64,000 bases of DNA from Nanobdellota archaeon (lineage in GTDB: Archaea; Nanobdellota; Nanobdellia; Pacearchaeales; GW2011-AR1), in the NCBI GenBank assembly GCA_024654565.1, contig JANLHM010000009.1:25945-89944 (forward strand), in the 5' to 3' direction. A model generated the notes under the pieces. The model was not told the origin of the DNA. It ran no database searches and was given only the letters and a program-made list of their open reading frames with translations. A program made the translations under genes and the position numbers. Positions 3,544-60,542 of the stretch are shown piece by piece; the stretch's first letter is position 1; each line of letters opens with the position of its first letter.

Positions 3544-4725
3544 ATGCAAAAAAAAGGGGAAAAAAAGGGGATAAAACTTTTGACACTAGCAACTTCAGTC
3601 AGGTGGCTAGGTTGGGGTTTTGGGGAAGCGTTTATCCCAGTATTTCTACTTTTATTTTCAAAAAACTTTCTTGAAGCAGGAATACTTGCATCCGCATACT
3701 ACTTACTTTTCTTTTTGTCTCTTCCAATTTCTTCATACATTGCAGACCGTTACAATGTAAAAAAAATGCTCCTTACAGCGATGATAATTTACATTTTTAT
3801 TGGCTTAGGATATTTTGTAGCAGGAATTACTGGGGCAGTTATTTTTATAATTCTCTCAAGAAGTTTAAGTGGGGTGTCTTTCTCAATGGATCAAATTGGA
3901 AAAGAGTCTTACATTATGAGGCATTCCCCAAAAGGAAAAGTCTCTGAAACTTTTGGACGTTTTGATTTTGTAACAAACTTATGGTGGGTTGTTGCAGTAT
4001 TAGTGGGACTTATATTAGTCGAGTTTGCGGATGTCAAAATTCATGAGCTTTTGCTTCTTGTTGTTCCAACGTCCCTCATATCTTTTTTTATTTTAATGAA
4101 ACTCAAAGAAAAAAGTAATAAGAAAAAAAATAATTTTTCAATAAAAAATGCATACCTTGAAACTTTTAAAGAGATTAAAAAATTCAGTAAGGGATTAAAA
4201 CTGGTTGCATTCTTAACTTTTGTTTTTGCATTGTCGAGTTCCATTCTTTATTTCTTTGTTCCAATATCTGCTTACTTGGGGGGAAATGGAGTTGTAAGTT
4301 CAGCCGTCCTTGCTTTTGTATATTCAATTCCATTTTTCTTTGGAAACAGTCTTGGAAAAATAGTCGATAAAAAGAAGGACAAAGTTTATATTTTTGGGGG
4401 AGTTTCACTTATTTTGGTCTTTCTTGCAGTTGCATTTTTTAAAAGTTATGCAGTTCTTTTAGTTATAATGCTTATTTCAAGCGGAATTTTTGAACTTTTG
4501 TCCCTTACAAGAAGGGGGATGACTGCAAAACTTGGAAACAGGATGAAGCTTGGAGAAATTGACGGGGCATTAAATGGAGTTGCGGCACTTGGAGCGATTA
4601 CAGGGCCCATACTTTTTGGATTTTTTATGGATTCACTTGGAATGGAAACTTCATACCTAATAATTTCAGGAATAATTTTGATCTCAATTTCAGTTTTTAT
4701 TCTAAAAAGAAAACATTTGAATTAA
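3544..4725 (+). CDS. MFS-type transporter
   Basis: About 12 predicted hydrophobic helices. The track ORF starts at a TTG (3481). The ATG at 3544 (MQKKGEKKG...) sits about 25 nt after a tttttaaat box, so it is preferred. Confidence 0.7.
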   Translation: MQKKGEKKGIKLLTLATSVRWLGWGFGEAFIPVFLLLFSKNFLEAGILASAYYLLFFLSLPISSYIADRYNVKKMLLTAMIIYIFIGLGYFVAGITGAVIFIILSRSLSGVSFSMDQIGKESYIMRHSPKGKVSETFGRFDFVTNLWWVVAVLVGLILVEFADVKIHELLLLVVPTSLISFFILMKLKEKSNKKKNNFSIKNAYLETFKEIKKFSKGLKLVAFLTFVFALSSSILYFFVPISAYLGGNGVVSSAVLAFVYSIPFFFGNSLGKIVDKKKDKVYIFGGVSLILVFLAVAFFKSYAVLLVIMLISSGIFELLSLTRRGMTAKLGNRMKLGEIDGALNGVAALGAITGPILFGFFMDSLGMETSYLIISGIILISISVFILKRKHLN

Positions 4726-8247: not shown

Positions 8248-8526
8248 TTATTTCATTTGTTTGTTTAACCCCAACAATTTAAAAATTTCAAGAACTTTCT
8301 TATCTACAATTTGATAATAAACCCACTTCCCTTCCCTTCTTGATTTGATTATTTTTGCTTTCTCCAAGACGTTAAGTTGTATAGAAACAGTTGATTGGGT
8401 TCTTTTCACATTAGGAAAAATCTCACAAACACATTTTTCTCCATTAAGAAGAAACTGAATTATTTTTAATCGGGTATTATCACTCAATGCTTTAAGTATA
8501 ATTATCGGTTGCTGATTACCGCTCAT
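8248..8526 (-). CDS. arsR: ArsR-family metalloregulator
   Basis: w[26 protein letters not shown] with a CVC metal-binding motif, then [17 protein letters not shown]. Confidence 0.85.
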
Positions 8527-8574: not shown

Positions 8575-8645
8575 TGGTCCATGGAGGAATCGGACCTCCG
8601 CCTTCTCGGTGTAAACGAGATGTTCTGCCATTAGACTAATGGACC
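8575..8645 (-). tRNA. tRNA-Val (anticodon UAC)
   Basis: Hand fold of the reverse complement GGTCCATTAGTCTAATGGCAGAACATCTCGTTTACACCGAGAAGGCGGAGGTCCGATTCCTCCATGGACCA. The 7-bp acceptor, TCTCG/CGAGA anticodon stem, TTTACAC loop and GGAGG/CCTCC T-stem are all perfect. The D-stem is imperfect. Confidence 0.75.
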
Positions 8646-9586: not shown

Positions 9587-9657
9587 TGCGCGAGCCGAGA
9601 TTCGAACTCGGGTCACAACCTTGGCAAGGTTGCATTCTACCACTGAACTACTCACGC
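9587..9657 (-). tRNA. tRNA-Gly (anticodon GCC)
   Basis: Hand fold of the reverse complement GCGTGAGTAGTTCAGTGGTAGAATGCAACCTTGCCAAGGTTGTGACCCGAGTTCGAATCTCGGCTCGCGCA. All four stems pair, and the anticodon loop is TTGCCAA. Confidence 0.85.
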
Positions 9658-14902: not shown

Positions 14903-16291
14903 ATGAAAAAGGTGTTCTTGATTTTAGTTTTAGGATTTTTATTGTTACAACCAATTCTTGCAATTGATTTAGATATTCAAAAATTAAGTGATAAAGAAAC
15001 AATGGTAATCGGACTTGAAAATCCTGCAACGTTTAAAATAAATGTTACAAATAACGGACCAACTGAAAAATTTACATTTTATACCTTTTTTGGAATGGGA
15101 CTTGAACCAGCAGAAGCTATTGAAATAAAATCGGGGGAGTCAAAGGTTATTCAGGTTAAAATATTTCCAAGGCTTGATTCTGAACTTTCAGGATATGTCA
15201 CTTTCAAATATTATATAAGAGATAAATATAAAGAAGAAATTGAAGAAAGTTTAACTGTAAACTTAATTTATTTAAAAGACGCTTTTGAAATAGGTGCTAA
15301 TTCAATAGACCCAGAATCAAATTCTGTAAATGTGTATGTTCACAACAAGGTGAACTTTGACTTTGAAGATTTAAATGTTCGTTTCACCTCGCCATTCTTT
15401 GAAGTTGAAGAAACAGTTAGTTTAAGTCCTTATGAAAGACGGAATTTTGATTTAACTCTCGAAAGAAGTGACTTTGCAAAACTTATGGCAGGATTTTATA
15501 CTTTAACGGGTGACTTTGAAATAGAAGGGGTTTCGGGAAGAACTGAAGAAACTATAGACTTTTTAGAAAAAGATATTGTAAAAGATGAAGAAAAAAAGTT
15601 TGGATTTGTAGTTTCTACAGAGGTAATAACAAAAACAAATGAAGGGAACACTATAAGTAACACCCAGATTTCTGTTAAGAAAAACATAATTTCAAGAATG
15701 TTCACAAGTTTTTCAACAACACCCACAGTAGTAAAAAGAGATGGGTTTGGGATTACATATTTATGGGATCAAAAACTAAATCCGGGGGACTCTTTTGAAG
15801 TTGAAGTGAAAACAAATTGGTTTTTTCCAATTTTAATAATTATACTCTTGATTGCAACTGTTATCCTCGCAAGAAAATATGCTTCAACAGATTTAGTTTT
15901 AAGAAAAAGAATATCTTTTGTTAATGCGAAGGGCGGAGAATTTGCACTTAAAGTTACAATCTCAGTTGAAGCAAGAAAGTTCATAGAAAATGTAAAAGTC
16001 TTTGACAGACTTCCACCACTTGTTAAAATTTATGAAAAGTTTGGGGGAGAAATTCCTAAAAGATTTAATAAAACAAAGAAAGTATTCGAATGGGAATTCC
16101 AGACTTTGCAACCAGGTGAAAAGAGATTTCTCTCATATGTAGTTTATTCTAAAGTTGGAGTTCTTGGAAAGTTCGCGCTACCCGAAACATTCTCTACCTT
16201 TACAAGGGAAGGAAAATTAAAGGAAGTTTCATCAAATAAAGCATATTTTTTAGCTGAACAAAAAGGCAATAAAGTTGATTCTTTGTTTTAA
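14903..16291 (+). CDS. secreted/membrane-anchored surface protein (462 aa)
   Basis: N-terminal signal peptide MKKVFLILVLGFLLLQPILA, beta-rich repeats, and an internal TM helix FFPILIIILLIATVILA. Confidence 0.65.
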   Translation: MKKVFLILVLGFLLLQPILAIDLDIQKLSDKETMVIGLENPATFKINVTNNGPTEKFTFYTFFGMGLEPAEAIEIKSGESKVIQVKIFPRLDSELSGYVTFKYYIRDKYKEEIEESLTVNLIYLKDAFEIGANSIDPESNSVNVYVHNKVNFDFEDLNVRFTSPFFEVEETVSLSPYERRNFDLTLERSDFAKLMAGFYTLTGDFEIEGVSGRTEETIDFLEKDIVKDEEKKFGFVVSTEVITKTNEGNTISNTQISVKKNIISRMFTSFSTTPTVVKRDGFGITYLWDQKLNPGDSFEVEVKTNWFFPILIIILLIATVILARKYASTDLVLRKRISFVNAKGGEFALKVTISVEARKFIENVKVFDRLPPLVKIYEKFGGEIPKRFNKTKKVFEWEFQTLQPGEKRFLSYVVYSKVGVLGKFALPETFSTFTREGKLKEVSSNKAYFLAEQKGNKVDSLF

Positions 16292-16350: not shown

Positions 16351-16514
16351 CCACCCATAGCTCAGTGGTTAGAGCGCCTGGCTGTAGTTTATCAATAAGT
16401 AACTAATGGGGAGAGTCCGATTCGCGGACAATCTATGAACCATGAAAAGCCGGAAATTTCCAAAAAAGGCAAGCAGTGCCCGGGAGATCCCAAGTTCGAC
16501 TCTTGGTGGGTGGA
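16351..16514 (+). tRNA. tRNA-Tyr (anticodon GUA) with a ~91-nt intron (about 16388-16478) at the canonical 37/38 position
   Basis: Hand fold. Acceptor CCACCCA/TGGGTGG with C1-G72 (the archaeal Tyr identity pair), D arm GCTC-AGTGGTTA-GAGC, and anticodon stem CCTGG/CCGGG. The anticodon loop is CT-GTA-G then the intron; the T arm is CCAAG-TTCGACT-CTTGG and the discriminator is A. Confidence 0.8.
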
Positions 16515-22944: not shown

Positions 22945-23023
22945 TAAAACTTAAGAAAAAATTTCTTTATATTGTTAACTTTTTAAGTAATAAGTCACTA
23001 ATTAGTAATAACAAACGGAAAGG

Positions 23024-23052: not shown

Positions 23053-23745
23053 ATGAATTTGGAAGGATATTTACCTCAAAATAGAATTGGAAGAGAAATA
23101 TACAAAAAAGTCCTTAGTGGAGAAGAGATTACTCCAGTTGAAGCCGGTTTAATTGGAAGAGAAGGAGATACCAAGGTAAAAAAACAAAGAGATTATCCAT
23201 ACAAATATGCTTTTCTAAAAAGTGACTTAATCGGAGCTAATGGCAACCATTCTAAGGTTTTTTCACTTGCTTCAAAAAATCTTGATCTTGTCGCAAAATT
23301 TCCAAAAGAAGGAAATTGGTGGAAAGTTGAAAGGGGAAGTATCATGCAATCAATGGCTTATGAAAAAGGGGTCGATGTTGCAAAACCAAAAGGATTGTAC
23401 AAAATATTCAATTTAGATACTAAAACTTTTTACTCTGGATTTGTGATGGAACATTTAGGAATGCTCCCCATAAATGAAATAAGAAGTTTAAAGGAAATGG
23501 TTTGTGATGAGAAAAAAAATTTTAACTTTGACGCTAAAGAACTACTTGATAAATTAAAATCTTCTTGTATGGGGCTTTGTGAATTGCATGAAAAAGCTCT
23601 TAAAGGTTACGAAAAAGCAAAGCAAAAAGCTGAATTAATAGGTTTTTCGAATATTGATTACAGGGAAACTAATGCTTTTTGGGTTCCAAGTAAAGATAAG
23701 GTAGTGATGATTGATTGCGATGAATGGGAATACGACGGTGATTAA
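23053..23745 (+). CDS. hypothetical protein, possibly protein-kinase-like fold; paralog of 58167..58799
   Basis: Blocks shared with 58167..58799: L.GEEI...EA...G, P(Y/F)KY, a G-rich LIGANGNHSKVFSL then VAKF (G-loop plus Lys-like), V.KPKGLYKIFN...FVMEH (hinge-like), and VMIDCDEW (DFG-position-like). The fold call is inference. Confidence 0.45.
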   Translation: MNLEGYLPQNRIGREIYKKVLSGEEITPVEAGLIGREGDTKVKKQRDYPYKYAFLKSDLIGANGNHSKVFSLASKNLDLVAKFPKEGNWWKVERGSIMQSMAYEKGVDVAKPKGLYKIFNLDTKTFYSGFVMEHLGMLPINEIRSLKEMVCDEKKNFNFDAKELLDKLKSSCMGLCELHEKALKGYEKAKQKAELIGFSNIDYRETNAFWVPSKDKVVMIDCDEWEYDGD

Positions 23746-32850: not shown

Positions 32851-32922
32851 CGCCCGCGCCGGGAGTCGAACCCGGATTTCCAGCGCGACAGGCTAGCGTC
32901 ATAGCCACTAGACCACGCGAGC
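32851..32922 (-). tRNA. tRNA-Asp (anticodon GUC)
   Basis: Reverse complement GCTCGCGTGGTCTAGTGGCTATGACGCTAGCCTGTCGCGCTGGAAATCCGGGTTCGACTCCCGGCGCGGGCG. Acceptor GCTCGCG/CGCGGGC, anticodon stem CTAGC/GCTGG, loop CTGTCGC, T arm CCGGG-TTCGACT-CCCGG. Confidence 0.8.
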
Positions 32923-40503: not shown

Positions 40504-40579
40504 TTTATAAAAAATGAATAAAGAAAATTTGGAGCGTCTAATTGAAAAAGCAGAAGATTTTGTTATTAAGAAAGGAAAG
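40504..40579. repeat. 76-bp direct repeat, copy 1 (10 nt upstream plus the first 22 codons of the gene)
   Basis: tttataaaaaatgaataaagaaaatttggagcgtctaattgaaaaagcagaagattttgttattaagaaaggaaag is identical to 40848-40923. Confidence 0.9.
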
Positions 40580-40861
40580 GTGAAGAGAAACTCCCATCCT
40601 AACCCAAAAAACAGTGTTTCGGGAGTTCATCCAACCAATACCATTATGGAAGACCGAACCTACAAATCAAAAGGTTTAATTTTAGAATATAGTTCAATTG
40701 ATTTTGGAATCCCTGGAAAGACGGAGAGTTTTTCAATTTATTTTAAAAGACCTTTTAGAAGAAAACAGCTTGTATTAAAAAAATACTGTGATGGAACAAT
40801 TGAAAACTACCTTCCATCTTCTTTAATTAAAGATTTGGAAAAAATTCTTTATAAAAAATGA
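40514..40861 (+). CDS. hypothetical protein, cassette paralog A (115 aa)
   Basis: The first 22 aa are identical to the next gene. A shared central Y(K/R)SKGLIL(E/K)Y and a shared C-terminal (D/E)LEKILYKK are present. Confidence 0.65.
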   Translation: MNKENLERLIEKAEDFVIKKGKVKRNSHPNPKNSVSGVHPTNTIMEDRTYKSKGLILEYSSIDFGIPGKTESFSIYFKRPFRRKQLVLKKYCDGTIENYLPSSLIKDLEKILYKK

Positions 40862-40923
40862 ATAAAGAAAATTTGGAGCGTCTAATTGAAAAAGCAGAAG
40901 ATTTTGTTATTAAGAAAGGAAAG
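40848..40923. repeat. 76-bp direct repeat, copy 2
   Basis: Identical to 40504-40579. Confidence 0.9.
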
Positions 40924-41244
40924 AAGAAAATAAATAAACATTATACTCCAAAAGACAATATTCAAAAAGATTATTTAACCACCACAGAAGACATAACTTA
41001 CAGATCAAAAGGTTTAATTTTAAAATACCGTGAAGCAGAAACGGAGAATGTTCAAACTAAAAGTTTTGAAATAGCTTATAAAAAAATGTTTAAGAAAGAA
41101 AAAACACTTTATAGAGTCAAATTATTCAAGATGGGTAATGAAGAGGAAAGAAAAACTCAAAGCTGGAAGAAAGAAGCCAAATCAGAAAACTATCTTTCTC
41201 CAATAAGTATTAAAGAGCTTGAAAAAATTCTTTATAAAAAATGA
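40858..41244 (+). CDS. hypothetical protein, cassette paralog B (128 aa)
   Basis: ATGA overlap with paralog A. The termini match A while the centre is divergent. Confidence 0.65.
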   Translation: MNKENLERLIEKAEDFVIKKGKKKINKHYTPKDNIQKDYLTTTEDITYRSKGLILKYREAETENVQTKSFEIAYKKMFKKEKTLYRVKLFKMGNEEERKTQSWKKEAKSENYLSPISIKELEKILYKK

Positions 41245-41624
41245 AAATCAAATATTTCAAAAATTATGAAAATTTACATGATTGTTATGTCGGAGAAAAA
41301 AACGGAAAATCTGATTACTTTAATATTGTCTCAATAAGTAAGAGGTTCTTCCACCTCTTTGCAAATGATGAAGGTTCAAGTTTTAGGGATGGAAGGTTTG
41401 ACGGGTTTTACCGGTTAATGAAGGTTGAAAAAAGAGATTTTGATAATTTAAAAGGATTCGCAATAAACAAAAACAGAAAAAAGGGTTTAACCCTAATAAG
41501 AAAATTTCATGAAGAGAATCCAGACCTAAATCCAAATGTTGGAACTGTTGAAGGGGACACTGAAAACTTTGACAGAGAAAAAACTTTTGAATTTTACATA
41601 AAGGCTAAGCCAATTCTTGAATAA
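41241..41624 (+). CDS. hypothetical protein (127 aa), third gene of the cassette
   Basis: ATGA overlap. The same 25-nt junction gaaaaaattctttataaaaaatgaa occurs at the A/B boundary. Confidence 0.6.
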   Translation: MKIKYFKNYENLHDCYVGEKNGKSDYFNIVSISKRFFHLFANDEGSSFRDGRFDGFYRLMKVEKRDFDNLKGFAINKNRKKGLTLIRKFHEENPDLNPNVGTVEGDTENFDREKTFEFYIKAKPILE

Positions 41625-47922: not shown

Positions 47923-48501
47923 TTATATCTCAAAAATCTTGGTTATTTCTTCAATTGGTGCATTATAAAACTCATTAATGTCCTTCCGATTCCCATTAAA
48001 TTTTTTGTTTAGAATTTCTGCCCACACCAAATAATCACTTGAGTAATCAAGTTTATGGGGAATAATCGGAACCCATAGAAAATTCCTTCTTGGTTTTTTA
48101 AAATATTTCTTTCTAAGGAAATTGTCAATTAAAGTAGCATCCCCCTCAAAAAGTTTTGCATAACTGGAGTAAATTATTTTCTGTTTTTCATCGTCCCAAA
48201 ACCGATACCCCCCAAAAAGTTTAAAGCTGTCAAAAATATTTGGAAAATTGAACTCTTGGGCATTATGTGCTAATTCATGACCAATAATCAAATTCAAATA
48301 GTCCTCATTCCCTCCGTACTTTGGATTGAATTTTAAAGTTTGGTCAGAATAGGAAGCAATTACATCAAAATTAAGTTTTTTAATTACAACCTTGCAATTA
48401 GAAATGTTAGTTTTTAAGTGACTAAAATTTTCAACCATTAAAGAAATATTTTGCAAATTATTCTCAACATAATTCTTATTTATTATCACAAAAAAAATCA
48501 A
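47923..48501 (-). CDS. zincin-like putative metallopeptidase, paralog of the 55.8-58.2 kb family
   Basis: IIGHELAHNAQEFNF (HExxH), LFEGDATLIDNFL, and the C-terminal KKFNGNRKDINEFYNAPIEEITKIFEI. TTG start in the track; the true start is uncertain. Confidence 0.6.
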   Translation of the reverse strand: MIFFVIINKNYVENNLQNISLMVENFSHLKTNISNCKVVIKKLNFDVIASYSDQTLKFNPKYGGNEDYLNLIIGHELAHNAQEFNFPNIFDSFKLFGGYRFWDDEKQKIIYSSYAKLFEGDATLIDNFLRKKYFKKPRRNFLWVPIIPHKLDYSSDYLVWAEILNKKFNGNRKDINEFYNAPIEEITKIFEI

Positions 48502-48565
48502 ATTTTAATAATTTTTAAGCATTTATGTAATTTGTTACAAATTTATTTTGGATAAGAATTGCAAA

Positions 48566-49771
48566 TTACTCGTAACGCAAAGCGTCAACAGTATTTATTT
48601 TTGATGCGCGTATAGCAGGAATTACTCCTGAAATTGCACCAGTTACTCCTGCAAATAAAATGCATCCAATAAAAAGCCATGGCGAATAATATGGAGCTAA
48701 AAATGACCAACCTAGATTTGCTAAAACACTTCCTGCAACACTAGTTATTAAAAATCCCAATAGCACCCCCATTATTCCTGCTAGAACTCCTAGGAATGCT
48801 GATTCAAAAAGGAAGATTCCAAAAATTTCCCTGTTCCTTGCTCCAATAGACTTCAAAACTCCAATCTCCTTAAACCTCTCAAGAACTGAAGTGATCATCG
48901 TGTTTGCAGTGTTTATTCCAGAAACAAGAACGGAAATTAACGCAATTAGAATAACAAAACCAACAATAATGTTTAAAACAGCACTATAAGTTTCAATTAA
49001 ATCCTGAAAAGACTGAACATAAAAATCCTCTTCTCCTTTTTTCTGATCTCTTTCATTTCTTAAATCTCTTTCAATGTTTGAAATAGCTAAATCTATATTT
49101 TTAATGTCGGCTCTTGCAATAATTTGGGAATAAGAATCTTTTTCTGGAAAAAGGTCTTTGTAATAATTGTTCGTGATATAAATCTGAGAGTCATCCGTTG
49201 GATTTCCAAATGATTCAAAAAAACCAACAACTTTAATTGAAGTCCCGTTTATTTCAATTTGGTCATTTATGTCAAGTCCTTTTTTGAAAATTCTGTCATC
49301 AAACATATAATTGTATCCAAGAACTGCTTTTTTTGTGTCTCCAGACTCTAAAAGTCTCCCTTTTTCAATATCAGCATTTAAAAAATCTAAAACTAGGTCT
49401 GTTGACGGGTCATAAGAAACAATAAAAGTATATATCTTTTCACTTCTTCTTTCAACTTGAACAACGCTGTAATACAAACCCGTTGCTTCATACACTCCCC
49501 CAGACCTCTCAATTACTTCTAAATCCCTTTCAGTCAGTTTAAAAGTAGTGTCCAACCCTGGTGCAGAGCCCCCTTTTGCGAGTATTAAAATTTTGTCAGC
49601 AGATGAATCACTTGCAAACTCTTGAGTATAATTGTAAAGTCCAAGTCCAAAACTTATAAAAATAAATATTGTTGCAATTCCAATAAGAATTGAAAAGACA
49701 GTCAAAAAACTTCTTCCCTTTCTGTGTTTTAAATTCCTTAATGAATATCTTATTGATTCAGTGTTTATCAT
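48566..49771 (-). CDS. ABC transporter permease, MacB/FtsX-like
   Basis: N-terminal TM, a large extracytoplasmic loop, and a C-terminal FtsX 3-TM bundle with LERFKEIGVLKSIGA. Confidence 0.85.
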   Translation of the reverse strand: MINTESIRYSLRNLKHRKGRSFLTVFSILIGIATIFIFISFGLGLYNYTQEFASDSSADKILILAKGGSAPGLDTTFKLTERDLEVIERSGGVYEATGLYYSVVQVERRSEKIYTFIVSYDPSTDLVLDFLNADIEKGRLLESGDTKKAVLGYNYMFDDRIFKKGLDINDQIEINGTSIKVVGFFESFGNPTDDSQIYITNNYYKDLFPEKDSYSQIIARADIKNIDLAISNIERDLRNERDQKKGEEDFYVQSFQDLIETYSAVLNIIVGFVILIALISVLVSGINTANTMITSVLERFKEIGVLKSIGARNREIFGIFLFESAFLGVLAGIMGVLLGFLITSVAGSVLANLGWSFLAPYYSPWLFIGCILFAGVTGAISGVIPAIRASKINTVDALRYE

Positions 49772-49772
49772 T

Positions 49773-50990
49773 TTAATCTCTCAATGCCTCCACTGGATTT
49801 TGTTTTGCAGCACGAACAGCAGGAGCAATTCCCGCAATTCCTCCAATTAAAAAACTTCCAATAAGGGAAAAGAAAATTAAAACAAAGTTTATTGAGGGAG
49901 CAAGGTCAGAATTGACAAAACTGTTTATTCCAATAACTCCAACTAAACCAATTAAAGTTCCAAACAAAGCCCCAACAAAACCCCCAACAAGACCTAAAAG
50001 ACTTGATTCAATAAAAAATTGGGTAAATATTTGAGAGTTTGTTGCACCAATTGATTTCATTATTCCTATTTCTTTTTTTCTTTCTAATACCGAAGTCGTC
50101 ATAGTGTTAACAATTCCCAAGGCCCCAATAAAAATAGAAATTGAAGCGACAATAACAATAAACATCTGAACTCCCCCAAGAATTGCGTTTACGCTTTCAA
50201 GGCTTGATTCGGGGGTTGAAACCTCAAAATTTTCGTCCCCTACTTTAACGTCCCTTACTTTTCTTAATACTTTTTCAATGTCTTCCTTTGTTTTCAAGAT
50301 TTCATCTTTGTTTACCGGTTGAACTGCAATGATGTCTATTTTGTCTCCATAGTTAGAAATTGAATCTAGGTCCTCCTCATTCATATACGCAACATTGTCA
50401 AAAATAAAACTTCCTTTTTTTTCCAGTATTCCAACAACCTGGAAACTTTTATCTTGAATTGCAACAGTATTCCCTGGGACTACTTTTTTTCCAAGTCCAA
50501 CTGAATCAGTATAAAAATTATATCCAAGAACTACTTTCCCAACGTCATCATCCTTAAGTAACCTACCAACAACAGTTTCTGCTTCAATCTGTTCATAAAT
50601 AAACTTTCTGTTTTCTCCAGAGGGGATGTTTGTTGCATATCCAAAAATTGCTCTTTTGTTATATTCTAATTTTGCAGAAACAATGTCTCTTCCAACAGCT
50701 CTTTTAACACTCGAAAGTTTCTCTATTGCTTCAAGCTCTTTAGAAGTTAAAGGGTCAACGGCTCCTGAACCCGGGGGGCCAAAGTTTGAAATTCCCCCTG
50801 CCTGAACACTCAAAAGTTCAGTTGAACTTATCCCGAATTGACTTGAAACTGCCGTCTGAAGTCCACTTCCAAGTGAAATTAATGAAACAACTGCGAGAAC
50901 ACCAATAAAAATTCCTAGAAGAGTAAGCCACGAACGTAAACCTCTATGTCTTAAGTTCTTAATGGAAAGGCTAAAAGTATCACTTAACAT
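49773..50990 (-). CDS. ABC transporter permease, MacB/FtsX-like (second copy)
   Basis: Same architecture; LERKKEIGIMKSIGA. Confidence 0.85.
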   Translation of the reverse strand: MLSDTFSLSIKNLRHRGLRSWLTLLGIFIGVLAVVSLISLGSGLQTAVSSQFGISSTELLSVQAGGISNFGPPGSGAVDPLTSKELEAIEKLSSVKRAVGRDIVSAKLEYNKRAIFGYATNIPSGENRKFIYEQIEAETVVGRLLKDDDVGKVVLGYNFYTDSVGLGKKVVPGNTVAIQDKSFQVVGILEKKGSFIFDNVAYMNEEDLDSISNYGDKIDIIAVQPVNKDEILKTKEDIEKVLRKVRDVKVGDENFEVSTPESSLESVNAILGGVQMFIVIVASISIFIGALGIVNTMTTSVLERKKEIGIMKSIGATNSQIFTQFFIESSLLGLVGGFVGALFGTLIGLVGVIGINSFVNSDLAPSINFVLIFFSLIGSFLIGGIAGIAPAVRAAKQNPVEALRD

Positions 50991-51487
50991 ATATTAATCT
51001 CCCACCAAACTTTTTTAACTCCATTAACTATTCTATTTTCAACTTTTCTAAATCCAACTTTTTCATTCACTTTACAAACAGCCTTATTTGATTTTTTACA
51101 TTGGGCATATATTATTTTCATTTTTTTTATTTTAAATCCATAATTGATGATTTTTTTCAAAGCTTTTGTAGCTAAACCTTTACCCCTATAATCTGGATGT
51201 AACCATAAATGGACTCTTCCTTCACTAGAATTTTTATCCCAATTTTGATAATCTAATTTAACATTTCCAGCATATTTTCCATCTACTAATATTGTAAAAA
51301 CCTGGGAAACCCCTTTCTTTGTTTTTTTAATAAAATCTTTTACTTCTTTTTTTGCTTCTTCGAAAGAAGAAGGAACACCCATAAATCCTTTTGCAGTTTC
51401 TTTATCTTGCATAACTTCCCAATATAATTTGGAATCATTTAATTTAATGGGCCTTAAAATAAATCCTTTTCCTTTTAAAACAATCAT
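50984..51487 (-). CDS. GNAT acetyltransferase (RimJ/RimL-like) embedded in the ABC operon
   Basis: HPDYRGKGLATKALKKIINYGF is the acetyl-CoA motif. Overlaps the downstream permease by 7 nt and starts 2 nt after the ATPase gene. Confidence 0.75.
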   Translation of the reverse strand: MIVLKGKGFILRPIKLNDSKLYWEVMQDKETAKGFMGVPSSFEEAKKEVKDFIKKTKKGVSQVFTILVDGKYAGNVKLDYQNWDKNSSEGRVHLWLHPDYRGKGLATKALKKIINYGFKIKKMKIIYAQCKKSNKAVCKVNEKVGFRKVENRIVNGVKKVWWEINIC

Positions 51488-51488
51488 C

Positions 51489-52250
51489 TTACTCCCTCTC
51501 CTTAACTATTCTTTTGGGTTCTCCGTCAGTATATTTTTTTACTTTCTTTTTCTTTGTAATTTTCTCAAGTTTTCCGTCACGAAGCCAATAAACAATTTCA
51601 GCATGTTGTTTGGCAAGTTCTGGTTCGTGAGTAATCATAATTATTGTTTTTCCTTGCTTGTGAAGTTTATCCAAGAAATCCATAACTATGTCTCCCGTTT
51701 TAGTGTCAAGGTTTCCTGTTGGTTCATCAGCTAAAATTACTTCAGGCTCATTAGCAAGGCTCCTTGCAATTGCAACTCTTTGTTTTTGCCCTCCTGAAAG
51801 TTCATTTGGATAGTGGTCCATTCGGTCACCAAGTTCAACAAGATTAAGAAGTTCTTCAGCACGAACTTCTCTTTCTTCAATGGGGACTCCTTGAAAAGTC
51901 ATAGGAAGCATAACATTCTCTTTTGCAGTTAAATTTGGAATTAAGTTAAACGACTGAAAAATAAAACCGATTTTTTGCCCCCGAAGTTGAGAAAGGTCAG
52001 ACTCTGAAAAAGTGGATATGTCTTCACCATCAAGAAAGATATTGCCTTTTGTCGGAACGTCAAGACTCCCAACAAGGTTCATTGAGGTGGACTTTCCTGA
52101 ACCGGACGGACCCATAATTGCAACAAATTCTCCTTCGTTAACTTTAAGCGAAATCCCGTCAACCGCTTTTACAACATTGTCCCCCATATAGTAATATTTG
52201 AAAACATTTTTTAGCTCAATCAAAACAGAATTTTTCCCCCCTTTTCTCAT
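51489..52250 (-). CDS. ABC transporter ATP-binding protein (MacB/LolD-like)
   Basis: GPSGSGKST (Walker A), LSGGQKQRVAIARSL (signature), ILADEPTGNLD (Walker B) and ITHE (H-loop). Confidence 0.9.
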   Translation of the reverse strand: MRKGGKNSVLIELKNVFKYYYMGDNVVKAVDGISLKVNEGEFVAIMGPSGSGKSTSMNLVGSLDVPTKGNIFLDGEDISTFSESDLSQLRGQKIGFIFQSFNLIPNLTAKENVMLPMTFQGVPIEEREVRAEELLNLVELGDRMDHYPNELSGGQKQRVAIARSLANEPEVILADEPTGNLDTKTGDIVMDFLDKLHKQGKTIIMITHEPELAKQHAEIVYWLRDGKLEKITKKKKVKKYTDGEPKRIVKERE

Positions 52251-55691: not shown

Positions 55692-55782
55692 ACATTTTAA
55701 ACACATAAAAAACTAATTTTAATTCACTAAATAATCTCTCATTTATTTTGTTACTATTTTAAAGAAACGACATATCGAAAGA

Positions 55783-55790
55783 TTTATATA
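55783..55790 (+). promoter_or_regulatory. TATA-box-like element for the seven-gene cassette
   Basis: tttatata lies 60 nt upstream of the ATG at 55851. Unlike most genes here, this implies a 5-prime leader of about 35 nt. Confidence 0.4.
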
Positions 55791-55850
55791 TTAGTAAATA
55801 GTAATACTTTTAACTAAAAAGTGGTATCAAAATCACACTAAAAGAGAAAA

Positions 55851-56423
55851 ATGAAAATAAATGAAGATTATGCAAGGAAAACAATTGAAGAAGTTGCTCC
55901 ACTTGTCGAAGAATTTAGTGGGCTAGAAACCGATTTGGATTTTCCAGATGTAACAGTTCATAAAAAATTTGCCGAAGATTTCAAAGATGCAGAAGCTTAT
56001 TATGTTCCAAATTTGGACATTTTCCATTTCTTAGAAAAGTACAAATTAAAAACAAAAAATATATTCAAATCACTGGCAGGTCATGAAACAATGCACCATG
56101 CTCAATATAATTCTTTCAAAAATTTAATTAAACGGGAAATTTATTTTTATAATCTTCATCCAATAGACAATTCTAAAAACTTTGCCACAGAATCACCTCT
56201 GAGAAGGTTAATAGAGGGAGATGCAACATTAATTCAGAGATTGATTTACAAAAAACTCCCAAAATCAAAGTTAGAAATGCTCATCCCAAATCTTTATGAC
56301 CCATGTTATTTCTTATGGTCAAATATCCTCAAGAAAAAATTTAACGCAAATCGTAAAGACATAAATGAACTCTACACTGCACCATTTGAAGAGTTAGATA
56401 AAATTTTCGGAGGAAGTAAATAA
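55851..56423 (+). CDS. zincin-like putative metallopeptidase, paralog 1 (190 aa)
   Basis: LAGHETMHHAQYNSF (HExxH), LIEGDATLIQRL, and the C-terminal KKFNANRKDINELYTAPFEELDKIFGG. The HExxH..Q plus EG(D/H)A layout resembles Zincin_2/DUF2342-type peptidases (by eye). Confidence 0.65.
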   Translation: MKINEDYARKTIEEVAPLVEEFSGLETDLDFPDVTVHKKFAEDFKDAEAYYVPNLDIFHFLEKYKLKTKNIFKSLAGHETMHHAQYNSFKNLIKREIYFYNLHPIDNSKNFATESPLRRLIEGDATLIQRLIYKKLPKSKLEMLIPNLYDPCYFLWSNILKKKFNANRKDINELYTAPFEELDKIFGGSK

Positions 56424-57026
56424 ATGAAAATAACAGGAAATTATATGGGGGACGTGATTGAAGAAGTTGCGCCTTTAGTTAAAGAAATTAGTGGACTAAA
56501 AACAAACTTGGAAAAATCCGTAATTAAAATTAGGTGGTTTAATGAAAAATCGAACTATGCAAGTTATAATCCATTCGAAGATGTTTTTAAATTTAATAAA
56601 AACCTTTTTTTAAATGAAGAGGGTTTGAAATTAATTGTGGGACATGAATTGATGCACAATGCACAGTACAAATCAAAAGAAAAATTATTAATAAAACAAA
56701 TTAAATACTTTTTAAAATCTGATGAACTAGAAGAAATTAATCCATTGAACGCATTGACGGAAGGTGATGCGACCCTAATTGAAAAAAATCTTCAGGAAAA
56801 GTTTTTCAAAGGAGCAAAACGCACGCTATTCAAAAGAAGACTTCCTTTTACAAACTCATTTGCAAATTCGTCCGAAGTCCCTTATACTGATAAATTTCGC
56901 TCTCCGAATTATGTAAAGTGGGCTAACATTTTAAAAAATGAATTTGGGGGGGATAGGGACAAAATTAACTCCCTTTATGAAAAAGACTACAATCAATTAA
57001 AAGAAATTTTTGGAGAGAAAAAGTAA
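56424..57026 (+). CDS. zincin-like putative metallopeptidase, paralog 2 (200 aa)
   Basis: IVGHELMHNAQYKS, LTEGDATLIEKNL, and the C-terminal NEFGGDRDKINSLYEKDYNQLKEIFG. Start abuts the previous stop. Confidence 0.65.
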   Translation: MKITGNYMGDVIEEVAPLVKEISGLKTNLEKSVIKIRWFNEKSNYASYNPFEDVFKFNKNLFLNEEGLKLIVGHELMHNAQYKSKEKLLIKQIKYFLKSDELEEINPLNALTEGDATLIEKNLQEKFFKGAKRTLFKRRLPFTNSFANSSEVPYTDKFRSPNYVKWANILKNEFGGDRDKINSLYEKDYNQLKEIFGEKK

Positions 57027-57464
57027 ATGAAAATAAAAGAAAGAATCTTATGGGTTATGTTCAGCATAGGAATAATTACCTCCCCCATTCTATACGAAAA
57101 AGTTCTAATAAATGGGAATCAACTTTCGCTTTGTGAAGGTAAAAAAATACATTCAAAATCTGAGCTTGAACAAATTATAGAAAAAAGAAAAAAAGAATTT
57201 GGATTCAAAGGAGAGATAGTTTCAAAAATTGATTCAACGGGAGAGATTGTTGATGTTGGAGGATCAAGAAAAATGGAAAGTGGAAAATATGAAGTGATAT
57301 TAAACAAAGACTATCTTCAAAATAAAGCATTAGAACATGAACTCTATCACATATTTGACGGACATTGTGAAAGGGGATACGACCCAATTTCATATATTTT
57401 TTGGTACGAACCAAAAGCAATGATCCACACACTATTTTATAGTCCGGAGGAAAATAAAAAATGA
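57027..57464 (+). CDS. membrane-anchored protein with HExxH motif (145 aa)
   Basis: N-terminal TM ILWVMFSIGIITSPILY, and LEHELYHIFDGH near the C-terminus. Start abuts the previous stop. Confidence 0.55.
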   Translation: MKIKERILWVMFSIGIITSPILYEKVLINGNQLSLCEGKKIHSKSELEQIIEKRKKEFGFKGEIVSKIDSTGEIVDVGGSRKMESGKYEVILNKDYLQNKALEHELYHIFDGHCERGYDPISYIFWYEPKAMIHTLFYSPEENKK

Positions 57465-57610
57465 AAATCCGATTAAGTATAACTGTTGACGAAGAAAAAG
57501 CAAAAATGATAACTGAAGTCTTGAAAGAAGGACTTTTTAGAAGTAGATCTCACGTCATGGAATATGCTCTTATTAAATTTCTAAAAGAAAAGGAGAATGA
57601 AATAAAATGA
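57461..57610 (+). CDS. ribbon-helix-helix (CopG/Arc-like) protein, 49 aa, not in the ORF track
   Basis: Hand translation: MKIRLSITVDEEKAKMITEVLKEGLFRSRSHVMEYALIKFLKEKENEIK. It shows the beta-strand (IRLSITVDEE), helix, RSRS-turn, helix pattern of RHH. ATGA overlaps at both ends. Confidence 0.65.
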   Translation: MKIRLSITVDEEKAKMITEVLKEGLFRSRSHVMEYALIKFLKEKENEIK

Positions 57611-58170
57611 AACTAACAGAGAAATTAGTAAGGAAAATAATTGAAGAGTCTATTCCGGTAGTTGAAGAAGAAAACAAATTAAAAACGGAATTGGATGATT
57701 ACTTGGTAACTCTTTGGGGAGGTTTTCAAAACGGGTATATACACCGCCCGAAACAAAAGTTTCTAATTTGTCCAGGATTAATAGAAGGAAAAAAAGAACT
57801 AAAGAGCATAATGTTCCATGAAGTTTTCCATAATGCCCAAAATTCAAACTTTAAAGATATTTTTGAACTTTACGAAAATTTACGTAAATATAAAATTGTA
57901 AAAAATTTAGTTAAAAAGGCTTATTCAATTAGATGTTTGATAGAGGGTGACGCGACCTTAATAGAAAGAAACTTATCCAAAAAATACCTAAATTATGATC
58001 CTTATGTGGGTGTAAATTTAGAATTATTAAAAAATAATTTGGACGATTATCATGTTCATGGTGAAAAAATACTTCGTGAAAAATTCAAAGGAAATCGTAA
58101 AGACATCAATGAACTCTACACTGCGCCAGTTGAAGAATTAGTTAAAATTTTCGGAGGAAATGAAAAATGA
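57607..58170 (+). CDS. zincin-like putative metallopeptidase, paralog 3 (187 aa)
   Basis: IMFHEVFHNAQNSNF, LIEGDATLIERNL, and the C-terminal EKFKGNRKDINELYTAPVEELVKIFGG. Confidence 0.65.
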   Translation: MKLTEKLVRKIIEESIPVVEEENKLKTELDDYLVTLWGGFQNGYIHRPKQKFLICPGLIEGKKELKSIMFHEVFHNAQNSNFKDIFELYENLRKYKIVKNLVKKAYSIRCLIEGDATLIERNLSKKYLNYDPYVGVNLELLKNNLDDYHVHGEKILREKFKGNRKDINELYTAPVEELVKIFGGNEK

Positions 58171-58799
58171 AAAACTTTGGATTATTAAGAAAACTTGTTG
58201 AAGGAAAAGAAATATCTATAGAGGAAGCAAAAATCCTCGGGACAACAAGAAATGCAAACCTAAAATTTCCATTTAAATATGTGGTGGGAAATGAATTGGG
58301 AGAGCAAGGATCAAATTCAATAGTTTACTTGACAAAAAATAAAAAATCTATGATTGCAAAATTGAATTTTAATAGCCTCTTTTCAGTTAATAATTACCAA
58401 ATATTAAGGGAATTGAAAAAAAGAGGAAGAAAGGTTACAAATCCAAGAGGAATGTATAATGTATATAATCAGAAAAAAAAGGAATTTAATCCGGCATTAA
58501 TAATGGAATATGGAAATAGCATAAGAGTCTCGGATTTGAAAAGGAATAGTCCGGAGTATAAGGATGCATTAAAAAAAATAAAAAAGGAATCGGATAAAAT
58601 GAAAAAACTTGGATGGAAATCATTCTACGATAAATATTGGGATCCGACAAATTATTATAATGAATTCCGATATGGGATAAAATTCGAAAATGCTTTATAC
58701 GATCCCCCAATGAAGAGGTTAACTTTAATTGATTTTGATCAAGACGATTTAGATACGAGAAAACTTTATACGAATGAAAAAGGAGGAAAAGAACTATAA
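58167..58799 (+). CDS. hypothetical protein, possibly protein-kinase-like fold; paralog of 23053..23745
   Basis: LVEGKEISIEEAKILG, FPFKY, ELGEQGSNSIVYL...MIAKL, NPRGMYNVYN...ALIMEY and LTLIDFDQD. ATGA overlap upstream. The fold call is inference. Confidence 0.45.
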   Translation: MKNFGLLRKLVEGKEISIEEAKILGTTRNANLKFPFKYVVGNELGEQGSNSIVYLTKNKKSMIAKLNFNSLFSVNNYQILRELKKRGRKVTNPRGMYNVYNQKKKEFNPALIMEYGNSIRVSDLKRNSPEYKDALKKIKKESDKMKKLGWKSFYDKYWDPTNYYNEFRYGIKFENALYDPPMKRLTLIDFDQDDLDTRKLYTNEKGGKEL

Positions 58800-59197
58800 T
58801 GAAAAAACACGATTACGGAGAAATAGGAGAACCAATATACACCTATTCAGAAGAACCTAAAAAAGAATCAAAACTTTGGAGAAAAATTTTGACTTTCGGA
58901 CTTCCTTTACTATTCGCAGGAACCGTTATCTATGGATCTCAACCAAGTGAAATTGAAAGTAAAACTCTCAAGTATCAAGGATGGTATGAGGATGGGGGGA
59001 AAAATTTCCTCGTCTTTGATGAAAAATCAAAAAATGAAAGGGTCAATGGGCCAAAGTATAAAATTGTAAGTGGAATTACAAAAAATTTGAATGACTTTGA
59101 AACAAACAGAGATTATCGAGTAAAAATTGAAAAGAAAAATTTTGGATTTGTCTTCCCAGATGAAGTAACTTCAATTGAAGAAGTAAAATCTGATTAA
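58799..59197 (+). CDS. single-pass membrane protein (132 aa), last gene of the cassette
   Basis: TM helix ILTFGLPLLFAGTVIYG. 1-nt TAATG overlap with the previous gene. Confidence 0.55.
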   Translation: MKKHDYGEIGEPIYTYSEEPKKESKLWRKILTFGLPLLFAGTVIYGSQPSEIESKTLKYQGWYEDGGKNFLVFDEKSKNERVNGPKYKIVSGITKNLNDFETNRDYRVKIEKKNFGFVFPDEVTSIEEVKSD

Positions 59198-59256
59198 ATT
59201 AATTTATTTTTTATTTTTAAATTTAAATAAATAGACTAAAAAAACAAAAAGAAAAA

Positions 59257-59940
59257 ATGGAAAACAAAAAAGTCGTCCTCCCTGACGTTTCGCTTTGTGC
59301 AATAGTCAGGGACGAAAAAGTGAACCCGGCAGGGGGAATTAAAAGGTTTGTTGAGTCTCACGTCCCATATGTAGAAGAAGCCGTAATCGTTGACACTGGT
59401 TCAATTGACGGAACACGAGAAGTTTTAGAAGAATTAGAATTAAAATGCAAAAATCTTAAAGTTTACGACCGTAAGTTTATTGGATTTGCTGACGCAAGAA
59501 ACTTTTCTCTTTCAAAAGCAAATACAAAATATGCTCTTGTTCTTGATGCTGATGAATTACTAACTCACAAAACCCCGTTTAATGATTGGAAAATTATTAA
59601 AAATGTTTTAGAAAAAAAAGGAGAAGTATACCACTTTAGTTTCAATCACATACTTCCAAGTGGCCAATTGATAGAACCGGGAGAATGGAAGGAAAGGCTC
59701 TTCAAAATTGAAGGAACACAGTTTTCAGGGATATGTGGAGAAAGGCACTATAGACGGGGATTAGAAAGTGGTGTTTCTATAAAACATTTTCTTCAAAGTA
59801 AGATACCAAAAGTCTTGAAATGGGAAAACTTTTACAATAAACTTGAAGACGAAATTATTAAAAAAAATATATCCCCTTCACAAGTTGACGGCTTTAACGA
59901 ATGGAAAGAATATAACCCGAGGAGGGATTTGTACGAATAA
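59257..59940 (+). CDS. family 2 glycosyltransferase
   Basis: VSLCAIVRDE, VIVDTGSIDGTRE and LVLDADELL (DxD) are the GT-A/GT2 motifs. Confidence 0.75.
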   Translation: MENKKVVLPDVSLCAIVRDEKVNPAGGIKRFVESHVPYVEEAVIVDTGSIDGTREVLEELELKCKNLKVYDRKFIGFADARNFSLSKANTKYALVLDADELLTHKTPFNDWKIIKNVLEKKGEVYHFSFNHILPSGQLIEPGEWKERLFKIEGTQFSGICGERHYRRGLESGVSIKHFLQSKIPKVLKWENFYNKLEDEIIKKNISPSQVDGFNEWKEYNPRRDLYE

Positions 59941-59941
59941 A

Positions 59942-60427
59942 ATGGGAAAGATAATAGAAATTGATAAAGAAAAAATAAAAATAATCCAACATGGAATTGA
60001 TAATCAAAAAATAAGAAAGTTTCTTATAAGTTATATTTCAAATACTGTTGACATTTTAGTTCCAGTGAGAAAAATAGGAAGGTATTACTCCCTTCTTGAC
60101 GGTCACTCAAGGGGAAGCGTTGCGACTTCACTCTCTAAATGGAAAGAAATTCCCCTATAGGAGTATGTCCCAAAAAACGAAGGCGATTTTATAAAAAAAC
60201 TTTCAAAAAACTTTATCCAACATATAGAGGATTCAAATTACTTTATATCTAAAAATTTCGAATATGCAAACCACACATTCAAGGTGGGATTAAAAGAATT
60301 CACCGAAAATATAAATTTAATAAATTCTCCTGAAAAACTTTTAACAAATTACCTCTCACTTTATGAATTTCAAAATTTTAAAATTGGTCCAAAAAAGAAC
60401 TTATTAAAAAAACTTAATCTAGGGTAA
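59942..60427 (+). pseudogene. ParB/Srx-like nuclease-domain gene interrupted by an in-frame TAG (60158-60160)
   Basis: MGKIIEIDKEKIKII...ILVPVRKIGRYYSLLDGHSRGSVA (DGHxR ParB-like motif) ...KEIPL, then TAG. The same frame stays open for 88 more codons (EYVPKNEGDFIKKLSKNF...KKLNLG) to the TAA at 60425, with no in-frame ATG. Confidence 0.55.
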
Positions 60428-60542
60428 ATCGCATTTAGAGGTCTTGAATCAAAACCCCAATATTCATGGTATTACAAAGAGGATGATTTGTCAAAAAAGA
60501 TAAACCCACAACCTTTTTAACTTGAAAAACCCCTAAAACTTT

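Follow-up and report, generated by a model that had tools for sequence, protein, structure and literature searches.

A conserved, lineage-specific cassette of zincin-like, ribbon-helix-helix-type, kinase-like and membrane proteins between rps6e and aIF2-gamma in a Nanobdellota archaeon

In the tiny genomes of DPANN archaea a very large fraction of the genes has no annotation, and sensing and regulation in these organisms are almost unexplored. Here we analyse a 64,000-nt stretch of contig JANLHM010000009.1 from a Nanobdellota archaeon (the window, to which all coordinates refer) and, within it, a cassette of seven plus-strand open reading frames (ORFs), g1 to g7, that abut or overlap throughout (55851-59197). 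It forms an insertion between two housekeeping genes, rps6e and aIF2-gamma, and is real, conserved and lineage-specific, bringing known folds together in an undescribed combination that includes two uncurated protein families. The seven ORFs, their junctions and a single TATA-like box at 55783 had been listed in a preliminary description made from the DNA letters, and all of these are confirmed. Its remark that no system of this architecture had been described also stands, since full-text literature searches, PADLOC and PHROGs returned none with this gene set. Loci in other genomes are denoted below by labels beginning with L.

The cassette opens with two zincin-like paralogs: g1 (55851-56423), a cytoplasmic, gluzincin-like protein of 190 amino acids (aa) that carries HETMHHAQ and IEGDATLI and no hydrophobic segment, and g2 (56424-57026), of 200 aa, with a weak match to Hvo_1808_fam (E=0.0033). 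There follow g3 (57027-57464), an ORFan of 145 aa with an N-terminal hydrophobic anchor and an HELYH string; g4 (57461-57610), a 49-aa protein of ribbon-helix-helix (RHH) type; g5 (57607-58170), a third zincin-like paralog of 187 aa and the copy whose structure was modelled with AlphaFold2 (AF2); g6 (58167-58799), a minimal protein-kinase-like protein of 210 aa, so assigned from Foldseek and its alignment; and g7 (58799-59197), a single-pass membrane protein of 132 aa. Stop and start codons abut as TAA|ATG at 56423/56424 and 57026/57027, overlap as ATGA at 57461, 57607 and 58167, and overlap as TAATG at 58797-58801. A GGAG or GGAGG site lies 7-12 nt ahead of the ATG of each of g2-g7, within the 3′ end of the preceding gene, and in g1 and g5 the GGAGGA codons of the conserved ...IFGG tail themselves supply the GGAGG of the next gene; g1 is without such a site. 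Under a simple gene model, this is the window's longest same-strand chain with gaps of at most 5 nt (seven genes, against four in the next best). The upstream neighbours are ribosomal protein S6e and, on the minus strand, a RecJ/GAN-like OB-DHH protein; downstream come a family-2 glycosyltransferase (GT2; 59257-59940, plus strand; Pfam Glycos_transf_2, 1.2e-11) and aIF2-gamma, all identified by Pfam. The G+C content of the cassette (0.28-0.32) is near that of its flanks (0.30-0.38) and only slightly lower, and a foreign origin is not supported by composition. The data establish the parts of the cassette, their conservation, their shared promoter and their translational coupling; what they do together is a matter of interpretation, to which we return once the individual families have been described.

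The zincin-like proteins encoded by g1, g2 and g5 and by a fourth gene outside the cassette (47923-48489, minus strand, 188 aa, downstream of a MacB/FtsX-type ABC transporter) are 35-43% identical in pairwise comparisons and have in common HE..H.AQ, EGDATLI and an R..IN..Y...IF tail. The three paralogs of ~190 aa with shared motifs are therefore as first reported. The extra zincin copy noted in the preliminary description is real as well, as is an extra copy of g6, although the former lies on the minus strand and its database gene call is 47923-48489, not 47923-48501. The "striking paralog expansion" seen there is not recent: in a neighbour-joining tree the window copies are no closer to one another than to copies elsewhere, which rejects a recent burst, and being as diverged mutually as from the orthologs of other genomes, the four are old paralogs. 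The family comprises 40 clusters in 5.8e9 proteins, none with a precomputed Pfam domain, and the source names listed for them are all "hypothetical protein" from Pacearchaeota or Nanoarchaeota records. Homolog annotations of this kind assign the organism to the DPANN archaea of Pacearchaeota/Nanoarchaeota type. In a search of 1.84e9 proteins, 202 representatives fell under E<1e-3 and 40 of those under 1e-30. It is confined to a small DPANN clade.

Using g5 numbering, H71, E72, H75, Q78 and E113 are invariant both in an alignment of 34 close members and in one of 48 more diverse members; G114, A116 and Y171 are nearly invariant in both, L170 is nearly invariant, and R164 is invariant in the 34 close members. 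AF2, run for g5 on the family alignment (pLDDT 91.7, pTM 0.89), predicts an N-terminal helix (residues 5-23), three short strands, the HExxH helix (62-81), a short helix, a long helix (99-128) that carries E113, and four small helices. This modelled topology is the gluzincin arrangement of backing helix, small beta-sheet and glutamate helix, and two features of clan MA(E) are found with it, namely an HExxH motif conserved family-wide on an alpha-helix and, as predicted, E113-G-D-A on a downstream helix. Foldseek comparisons of the model returned lists dominated by zincins in both the PDB and BFVD (LTA4H and other M1 enzymes, selecase and other minigluzincins, M48, BlaR1, MATCAP, SprT-like and IrrE-like proteins), and Pfam searches with the 34 family members gave a sub-threshold scatter over MA-clan families (DUF6782 4e-5, DUF5700 6e-5, SprT-like 4e-4). 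The link to any curated peptidase family nonetheless stays below threshold: no Foldseek match is significant (best E 0.57 in the PDB and 0.026 in BFVD), and the best Pfam E-value is 0.18 for the window paralogs and 4e-5 for any family member, under the gathering scores.

The nearest curated relative appears to be Zincin_2, which the preliminary description had already suggested. A broad family profile searched against PDB sequences found 3CMN as its best match (E=0.01), over the strand before the active site, the HExxH motif, the EG motif and the following helix, and in the list of 50 PDB matches from Foldseek no entry exceeds the query-normalised TM-score of 3CMN (0.49); we take 3CMN to be the Zincin_2/DUF2342 structure. 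PF10103 is hit by none of the window paralogs or the 34 family members and by one of 58 distant relatives (3.4e-5), and all scores lie under the family thresholds; the distant relatives also carry transthyretin- or CarboxypepD_reg-like domains. The window zincins themselves have no signal peptide or hydrophobic segment (Kyte–Doolittle (KD) maximum 0.5-0.7) and so should be cytoplasmic. From motif and model together, we conclude that the ~190-aa proteins are gluzincin-type and metallopeptidase-like and form an uncurated family, to which Zincin_2 is the closest curated one through a borderline link that is qualitative only. The zincin-like character first proposed for them is in this way borne out by invariant residues, topology and zincin-heavy match lists, whereas their membership of Zincin_2 falls short of the threshold.

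Between the second and third zincins of the cassette lies g4, which is clearly a real gene under purifying selection and encodes the best-conserved protein of the cassette, as judged from its codons: the L017 ortholog is 86% identical in amino-acid sequence, with 15 synonymous against 6 non-synonymous codon changes, and further orthologs occur in L005, L008 and L019. RHH_1 is the top Pfam match for five of the five orthologs (E 0.0017-0.012; 16.0-18.6 bits), none of which reaches the cut-off of 20.5 bits. The best NCBIfam match is the ParD model TIGR02606 (6e-4), and a PDB profile search finds CopG at E=0.55. The pattern RLSITVDEE / KAKMITEVLKEG / LFRSRS / HVMEYALIKFL is kept in the five orthologs and, by a reading of the sequence alone, suggests strand-helix-turn-helix. 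We therefore regard g4 as probably an RHH DNA-binding protein, as the preliminary description had proposed for its 49-aa ORF, with a score formally below the curated cut-off, and as a probable, still putative, autoregulator of the cassette. RHH regulators of the CdrS type have been reported absent from DPANN archaea (PMC7439475).

The second uncurated family, that of g6, comprises only 12 clusters. Its AF2 model (pLDDT 80) gives 92 Foldseek matches in the PDB at E<1e-3, with CK2alpha at 2e-6, RIO2 at 7e-6, and RIO1 and APH(2″) also among them (probability 1.00), so that the kinase-like character suggested earlier for this 210-aa protein is upheld and the predicted structure has a bilobal protein-kinase-like fold. 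A glycine-rich turn, Lys65, a VME hinge, Asn175 and Asp189 within an IDxD motif are all conserved in the alignment, and the chain ends ~20 residues past Asp189, leaving no activation segment. The catalytic-loop Asp, as assigned by sequence pattern, is Gly in g6 and both orthologs (GIKFEN, GQKPQN, GLKLEN) and kept in the paralog family (IDYRETN), which is represented in the window by 23053-23745 (plus strand). Lacking this residue, g6 is probably a pseudokinase or else a regulator that binds nucleotide. The paralog shares 27% identity with g6 and stands alone, with a UvrD-like helicase on one side and VIT1 on the other, both here in the window and in three other contigs. Neither g6, the paralog nor 13 family members match RIO1 in Pfam, and g6 has no significant Pkinase match.

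The last gene, g7, is predicted to encode a short cytoplasmic tail (YGEIGEPIYTYSEEP), one membrane segment (KD 1.39 at residues 26-44) and an extracytoplasmic domain of ~85 aa, with no family or fold match in Pfam or the PDB. Its orthologs precede or follow the zincin in six other loci (L003, L005, L008, L017, L019 and L020), and the tail motif YG..G.PIY(T/S)(Y/F)SE is restricted to the three loci that also carry g6. By comparison, g3 is an ORFan whose sole match in 5.8e9 proteins is itself. The hydrophobic segment (KD maximum 1.59 at residues 10-28) and the HELYH string from which it had been taken as a fourth, membrane-bound metalloprotease are both present, whereas the zincin assignment has no support: there is no homolog, hhalign against the zincin family gives a probability of 1.3%, and nothing is found in the PDB. 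As HExxH arises by chance in an estimated ~0.5% of proteins of this size, the string alone does not make g3 a metallopeptidase; a weak PBECR1 match (0.021) was also recorded. Elsewhere, the slot beside the RHH gene holds proteins with a Cys...His pattern (L008:7408-8004, L005:4357-5004 and L017:5335-5775). Those of L008 and L005 are membrane-anchored with a transglutaminase-like pattern (C..GHMWIEY..W.PYE), and that of L017 (146 aa) is soluble with NCFGTA...HAGV; both the transglutaminase-like and the Cys-His readings are of motifs, with no Pfam match.

Ahead of these genes lies a promoter that sets the cassette apart from the rest of the window. Some 20 other genes carry a TTTAWAWA box whose start lies 27-32 nt ahead of the ATG (among them 1701-2288, 4722-6488, 8248-8526, 14903-16291 and 23053-23745), a spacing that implies leaderless transcripts; most transcripts of this genome thus appear to be leaderless, with internal operon genes using GGAGG sites instead. 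In the cassette, the TATA box TTTATATA (55783-55790, plus strand), with a BRE-like CGAAAG directly 5′ of it (joint BRE/TATA span 55776-55790), stands 68 nt before the g1 ATG as against the modal 27-32 nt. The leader is accordingly about 38 nt long (35-38), in agreement with the unusual ~35 nt first noted. Farther upstream, the element ATTTTGTTACTATTTT with its core GTTACTATT (55745-55760, plus strand) is found once in the window and is kept in five of six aligned orthologous promoters, ahead of whichever gene leads. In the promoter alignment AAAGATTTATATA is invariant across six loci, the order GTTACTATT, ~25 nt, (A/C)GAAAGATTTATATA is conserved, and a similar leader is present in three loci. 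This non-coding region ahead of the first gene is strikingly conserved in contrast to the encoded proteins, which are only ~40-60% identical.

The upstream element also contains one arm of an inverted repeat. Its left arm, TTACTATTT (55751-55759), is 100% complementary to AAATAGTAA (55796-55804) within AAATAGTAATAC (55796-55807, plus strand), which lies just 3′ of the TATA box at the start of the ~38-nt leader region, and the two form a perfect inverted repeat that brackets the box. On sequence grounds this is a candidate operator, the place where a repressor would act, and the conserved promoter with such a repeat fits the autoregulation originally proposed. Repeats of (A)GTAATA(A/C) occur in the leaders of L017, L005, L008 and L019 too. 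The octamer AGTAATA(A/C) is three-fold enriched in the window (16 copies against 5.3 expected), with one copy in the cassette leader (55800-55807) and two copies 18 nt apart upstream of the g6 paralog (22986-23011); a shared regulon defined by AGTAATAM was rejected, as the octamer is not kept upstream of the orthologs of that paralog (L023, L025). At the other end, a T6-A-T5 run (59207-59218, plus strand), 10 nt past the g7 stop codon, is a likely archaeal terminator, and a single transcript across the cassette is plausible. Scans for bacterial sigma-70 promoters and intrinsic terminators gave background levels and are irrelevant for an archaeon.

How stable is this arrangement across genomes? 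Between S6e and aIF2-gamma, the combination of RHH, zincin and g7 genes, with or without g6 and GT2, is found in L005, L008, L017 and L019, and zincin with g7 in L003 and L020. The closest relative, L017, reads S6e, transmembrane (TM) protein, RHH, the 146-aa Cys..His protein, TM protein, zincin, kinase-like protein, g7, GT2, ParB-like protein and aIF2-gamma; L008 reads S6e, GT2, RHH, the membrane protein with a transglutaminase-like C/H/E pattern, zincin, kinase-like protein, g7 and aIF2-gamma; and L005 reads S6e, a membrane protein as in L008 (transglutaminase-like), RHH, zincin and g7. In L019 the order is S6e, GT2, RHH, g7, two zincins and aIF2-gamma, in L020 S6e, a g7-like gene, zincin and aIF2-gamma, and in L003 S6e, zincin, g7 and aIF2-gamma, with a divergent TrmB gene upstream of the zincin. 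In other genomes GT2 accompanies the cassette, and in L008 and L019 it comes first after the conserved promoter. The adjacency had been proposed for checking in related DPANN genomes, and it does recur there, the gene order not being unique to this one. Related genomes, at least five of them, have the core at an identical chromosomal position, so the cassette is not a chance cluster.

These comparisons bear on two rival explanations. One holds that there is no system at all, and that unrelated lineage-specific genes have gathered in a permissive rps6e/aIF2-gamma gap and share one promoter for the sake of genome compaction. Gene content and order in the gap do vary (window, L017, L008, L005, L019, L020, L001/L003), short intergenic distances are common in the window (14 of 57 same-strand junctions are ≤0 nt), g3 is an ORFan, and zincin copies also occur in unrelated contexts. 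Yet RHH, zincin and g7 stay together through the rearrangements behind a conserved promoter, non-homologous substitutes of like general role recur beside the zincin, with TrmB standing in for RHH and a true Pkinase for g6, and the g7 tail motif co-occurs with g6; with these in view we consider it unlikely that the genes are unrelated. The other explanation invokes translation, the RIO/Bud32-like mini-kinase and the protease acting on components of the small subunit or of initiation. It draws on the position of the cassette or of a zincin next to rps6e (in the window, L001, L003, L005, L008, L014, L017, L019, L020 and L022) and on RIO2 and RIO1 being among the best structural matches of g6. Adjacency of rps6e and aIF2-gamma is ancestral in archaea, however, and the cassette looks inserted between them with its own promoter; the zincin family is limited to a small DPANN clade, and g6 is without the catalytic Asp and a RIO1 match in Pfam. 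A role in translation is very improbable.

Outside the cassette, the zincin family recurs in the company of DNA-binding proteins. A TrmB gene lies directly upstream of, and co-directional with, the zincin in L004 and L018, which are distantly related genomes with a different chromosomal context, and is divergent from it in L001 and L003, while in the window, L005, L008, L017 and L019 an RHH gene adjoins a zincin gene or lies no more than one or two genes away. Immediately upstream of the zincin in L021 there is a pair of RHH-like and ParE/RelE-like genes (L021:4397-4938), and directly upstream of a distant zincin relative in L026/27 a pair of DUF2683 (7e-8) and ParE_toxin-like (2e-4) genes (L026:3395-3896), two unrelated contigs which by sequence hint that the family may have a broader functional link to RHH antitoxins. 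With related loci counted once, a DNA-binding neighbour is present in about five or six of ten zincin contexts, and at least two confirmed folds (RHH-type and TrmB) are represented. Such adjacency is unlikely by chance, at p of about 1e-3 for a guessed background of 10-15%, a rough estimate from small counts. Next after the zincin of L007 come a 51-aa protein and then a membrane-anchored, bona fide Ser/Thr kinase (Pkinase 4e-13); an AbrB-like reading of the 51-aa protein finds no Pfam match. Two paralogous proteins of ~373-401 aa lie upstream of the same zincin (L007:3270-5630), with an "HDFIED" string reminiscent of RelA/SpoT-type HD-domain hydrolases.

Might the cassette, then, be a toxin-antitoxin or conflict module, in which g4 is the antitoxin, a zincin the toxin or an antitoxin-degrading protease, and the kinase-like protein an effector in the manner of HipA? 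The preliminary description had raised such a reading, and some of what we find would suit it: g4 overlaps its neighbours as antitoxin genes do and has a ParD antitoxin as its best NCBIfam match, the two zincin relatives just mentioned follow ParE/RelE-like pairs, and cassette gene content varies between genomes. Against this, no product has a match in PADLOC-DB (E up to 1) or a significant one in PHROGs, on which ground a known anti-phage defence system is rejected too. The fixed housekeeping locus and a promoter conserved despite 40-60% protein identity point to long vertical inheritance rather than mobile or patchy spread, G+C is near that of the flanks, g6 lacks the catalytic Asp, and no toxin family is recognised in the window cassette, ParE-like genes being present only beside other zincin relatives. 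The reading is weakly supported and, in our judgement, quite unlikely.

A second conserved zincin context has no regulator. One or two zincins follow just after a MacB/FtsX ABC transporter in the window (47923), L002, L009-L013 and L010, and in the majority of these loci two further proteins come next, one of 108 aa and one of 294 aa that is of surface type; in L022 the zincin is divergent beside transporter genes. In the window example (47923-52250, minus strand), the zincin gene comes after those for an ABC ATPase, a GNAT acetyltransferase and two MacB/FtsX-type permeases. This context lends itself to an explanation centred on the cell envelope, according to which GT2, the membrane proteins (g3, g7 and the transglutaminase-like or Cys-His proteins of other loci) and the zincins serve the processing, modification or quality control of proteins or peptides that are exported or lie in the membrane, and g4 only regulates the operon. 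Besides the exporters and the surface-type protein, it can call on a GT2 that travels with the cassette and leads it in L008 and L019, on two or three membrane-anchored cassette products, on the different putative peptidase-like proteins (two of them membrane-anchored) in the slot beside the RHH gene, and on the transthyretin- and CarboxypepD_reg-like domains of the distant relatives, which are typical of secreted proteins. It has to contend with window zincins that are predicted to be cytoplasmic, with a peptidase nature of g3 and the Cys-His proteins that consists of motifs, and with the repeated TrmB and RHH/ParE-like adjacency, which it leaves unexplained. We regard envelope or surface-protein maturation as fairly unlikely.

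The reading that we prefer, tentatively and short of thinking it probable, is by analogy an autoregulated module in which a zincin acts on a DNA-binding regulator and g7 and g6 link this event to a membrane signal. The RHH protein would repress its own operon through the repeat that brackets the TATA box, and the zincin would be a dedicated protease that inactivates the DNA-binding regulator, RHH here and TrmB- or RHH-type in other genomes, much as ImmA acts on ImmR, IrrE on DdrO and BlaR1 on BlaI. Finally, g7 and g6 would supply or gate a membrane-derived signal, for example via the conserved Tyr/Ser/Thr-rich cytoplasmic tail of g7.

Several observations, in addition to the insignificant fold and family scores of the zincins, weigh against such a module. 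A 9-nt inverted repeat is expected by chance about 0.2 times in an AT-rich stretch of 160 nt (estimate), and runs of T5-T7 occur inside the cassette (T7 at 56605, T6 at 57397), where they could bear on a single transcript. The RHH-bearing loci are phylogenetically related and count as one event; likewise, the three loci that combine the g7 tail with g6 are also the closest relatives, which confounds the correlation. Zincins without an adjoining regulator are found in the ABC-transporter context and in L020, L022, L028 and L030. Lastly, regulator adjacency may reflect a zincin that is merely regulated by its neighbour.

It is tempting to generalise from the cassette to the family. If the gluzincin family were a dedicated protease for small DNA-binding regulators at large (RHH, TrmB and RHH antitoxins), it would constitute, together with a degenerate mini-kinase and a membrane sensor, a transmembrane signal-to-transcription switch; this extension we find doubtful. 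Were it true, the switch would be an archaeal counterpart of BlaR1/BlaI or ImmA/ImmR built from unrelated families, possibly one with which an episymbiont responds to host contact or to the state of its envelope. By the same token, if the protease-regulator model is true, regulated proteolysis of transcription factors by dedicated zincins arose independently in archaea from different building blocks. If it is false, structural and biochemical studies of DPANN "dark matter" still gain in the cassette a conserved target with clear limits. Six products labelled at most "hypothetical protein" in the searches acquire concrete candidate roles, two new families are defined from their sequences, one of gluzincins whose catalytic motifs are clear and one of minimal kinase-like proteins that divides into an active and a degenerate branch, and a conserved promoter with a candidate operator is identified.

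Some further features of the window lie beside these subjects. A ParB-like gene with an LLDGHSRG motif (59843-60475, plus strand) has an intact 210-aa ortholog in L017, 57% identical over 193 aa. Two in-frame stops interrupt the window copy, a TAG at 60158-60160 in place of a Tyr of the L017 ortholog and a TAA at 60426-60428; similarity runs on past both, and the gene is therefore probably a pseudogene or a split gene. An Rfam scan at gathering thresholds found four tRNAs in the window and no RNA element in the cassette region. Three are ordinary tRNAs on the minus strand (8575-8645, 9587-9657 and 32851-32922), and the fourth (16351-16514, plus strand) spans 164 nt against a 71-position model, with a long insertion that is presumably an intron. 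At 40514-41624 (plus strand), three overlapping genes of 115, 128 and 127 aa form an apparent tandem paralog array, the second and third each preceded by an identical 18-nt AAAAATTCTTTATAAAAA.

How, finally, does the cassette compare with known systems, taken part by part? Zincin_2/DUF2342 (PF10103; 3CMN, a "putative hydrolase" from Chloroflexus aurantiacus) resembles the window zincins in its HExxHxx(Q/E)F helix, its EG-motif helix and its helical C-terminal part, whereas the DPANN proteins are half its size (~190 vs ~370 aa) and have an invariant NRKDINELYTAP..EL.KIF tail of their own; we know of no function for Zincin_2 itself. For g4, the likeness is to CopG and ParD, which share its length of ~45-50 aa, the N-terminal beta-strand (RLSITVDEE), the two helices and the G-x-x-R-S-R-S turn, although g4 scores just below the curated cut-offs and no cognate toxin accompanies it in the window cassette. 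For g6, the RIO/Bud32-type kinases offer the same minimal fold of ~200 aa, without an activation segment or distal C-lobe and with the beta3 Lys, the catalytic-loop Asn and the metal-binding Asp ("IDxD"). The resemblance of g6 to RIO, Bud32 and CK2alpha is at the level of the fold only, given the Gly in place of the catalytic-loop Asp and no RIO1 or Pkinase match in Pfam.

As a whole, the cassette recalls two kinds of bacterial switch. In ImmA/ImmR of ICEBs1, IrrE/DdrO of Deinococcus and other COG2856/Peptidase_M78 pairs, the gene of a small soluble HExxH zincin lies beside that of a small DNA-binding repressor, frequently with an overlap, and the two proteins autoregulate their operon. Adjacency of a zincin gene to a gene for a DNA-binding protein is found in the cassette and elsewhere, and proteins like the IrrE N-terminal domain are present in the non-significant BFVD fold list. 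Neither Peptidase_M78 nor M56 gave a Pfam profile match, the former in searches with the window paralogs, the 34 family members and the 58 distant relatives. The partners here are RHH or TrmB proteins and not Xre-type HTH proteins, the third zinc ligand motif is EGDA, kinase-like and membrane proteins are added, the cassette is not on a recognisable mobile element, and cleavage by the zincin is a prediction by analogy. In BlaR1/BlaI and MecR1/MecI, a membrane signal is coupled to a gluzincin that removes the repressor of its own operon, as is proposed for the cassette, and the zinc-protease domain of BlaR1 is among the top, non-significant, fold matches of g5. There, sensor, membrane segments and zincin are one polypeptide, whereas here the zincin is soluble, g7 is separate and the sensor domains are non-homologous.

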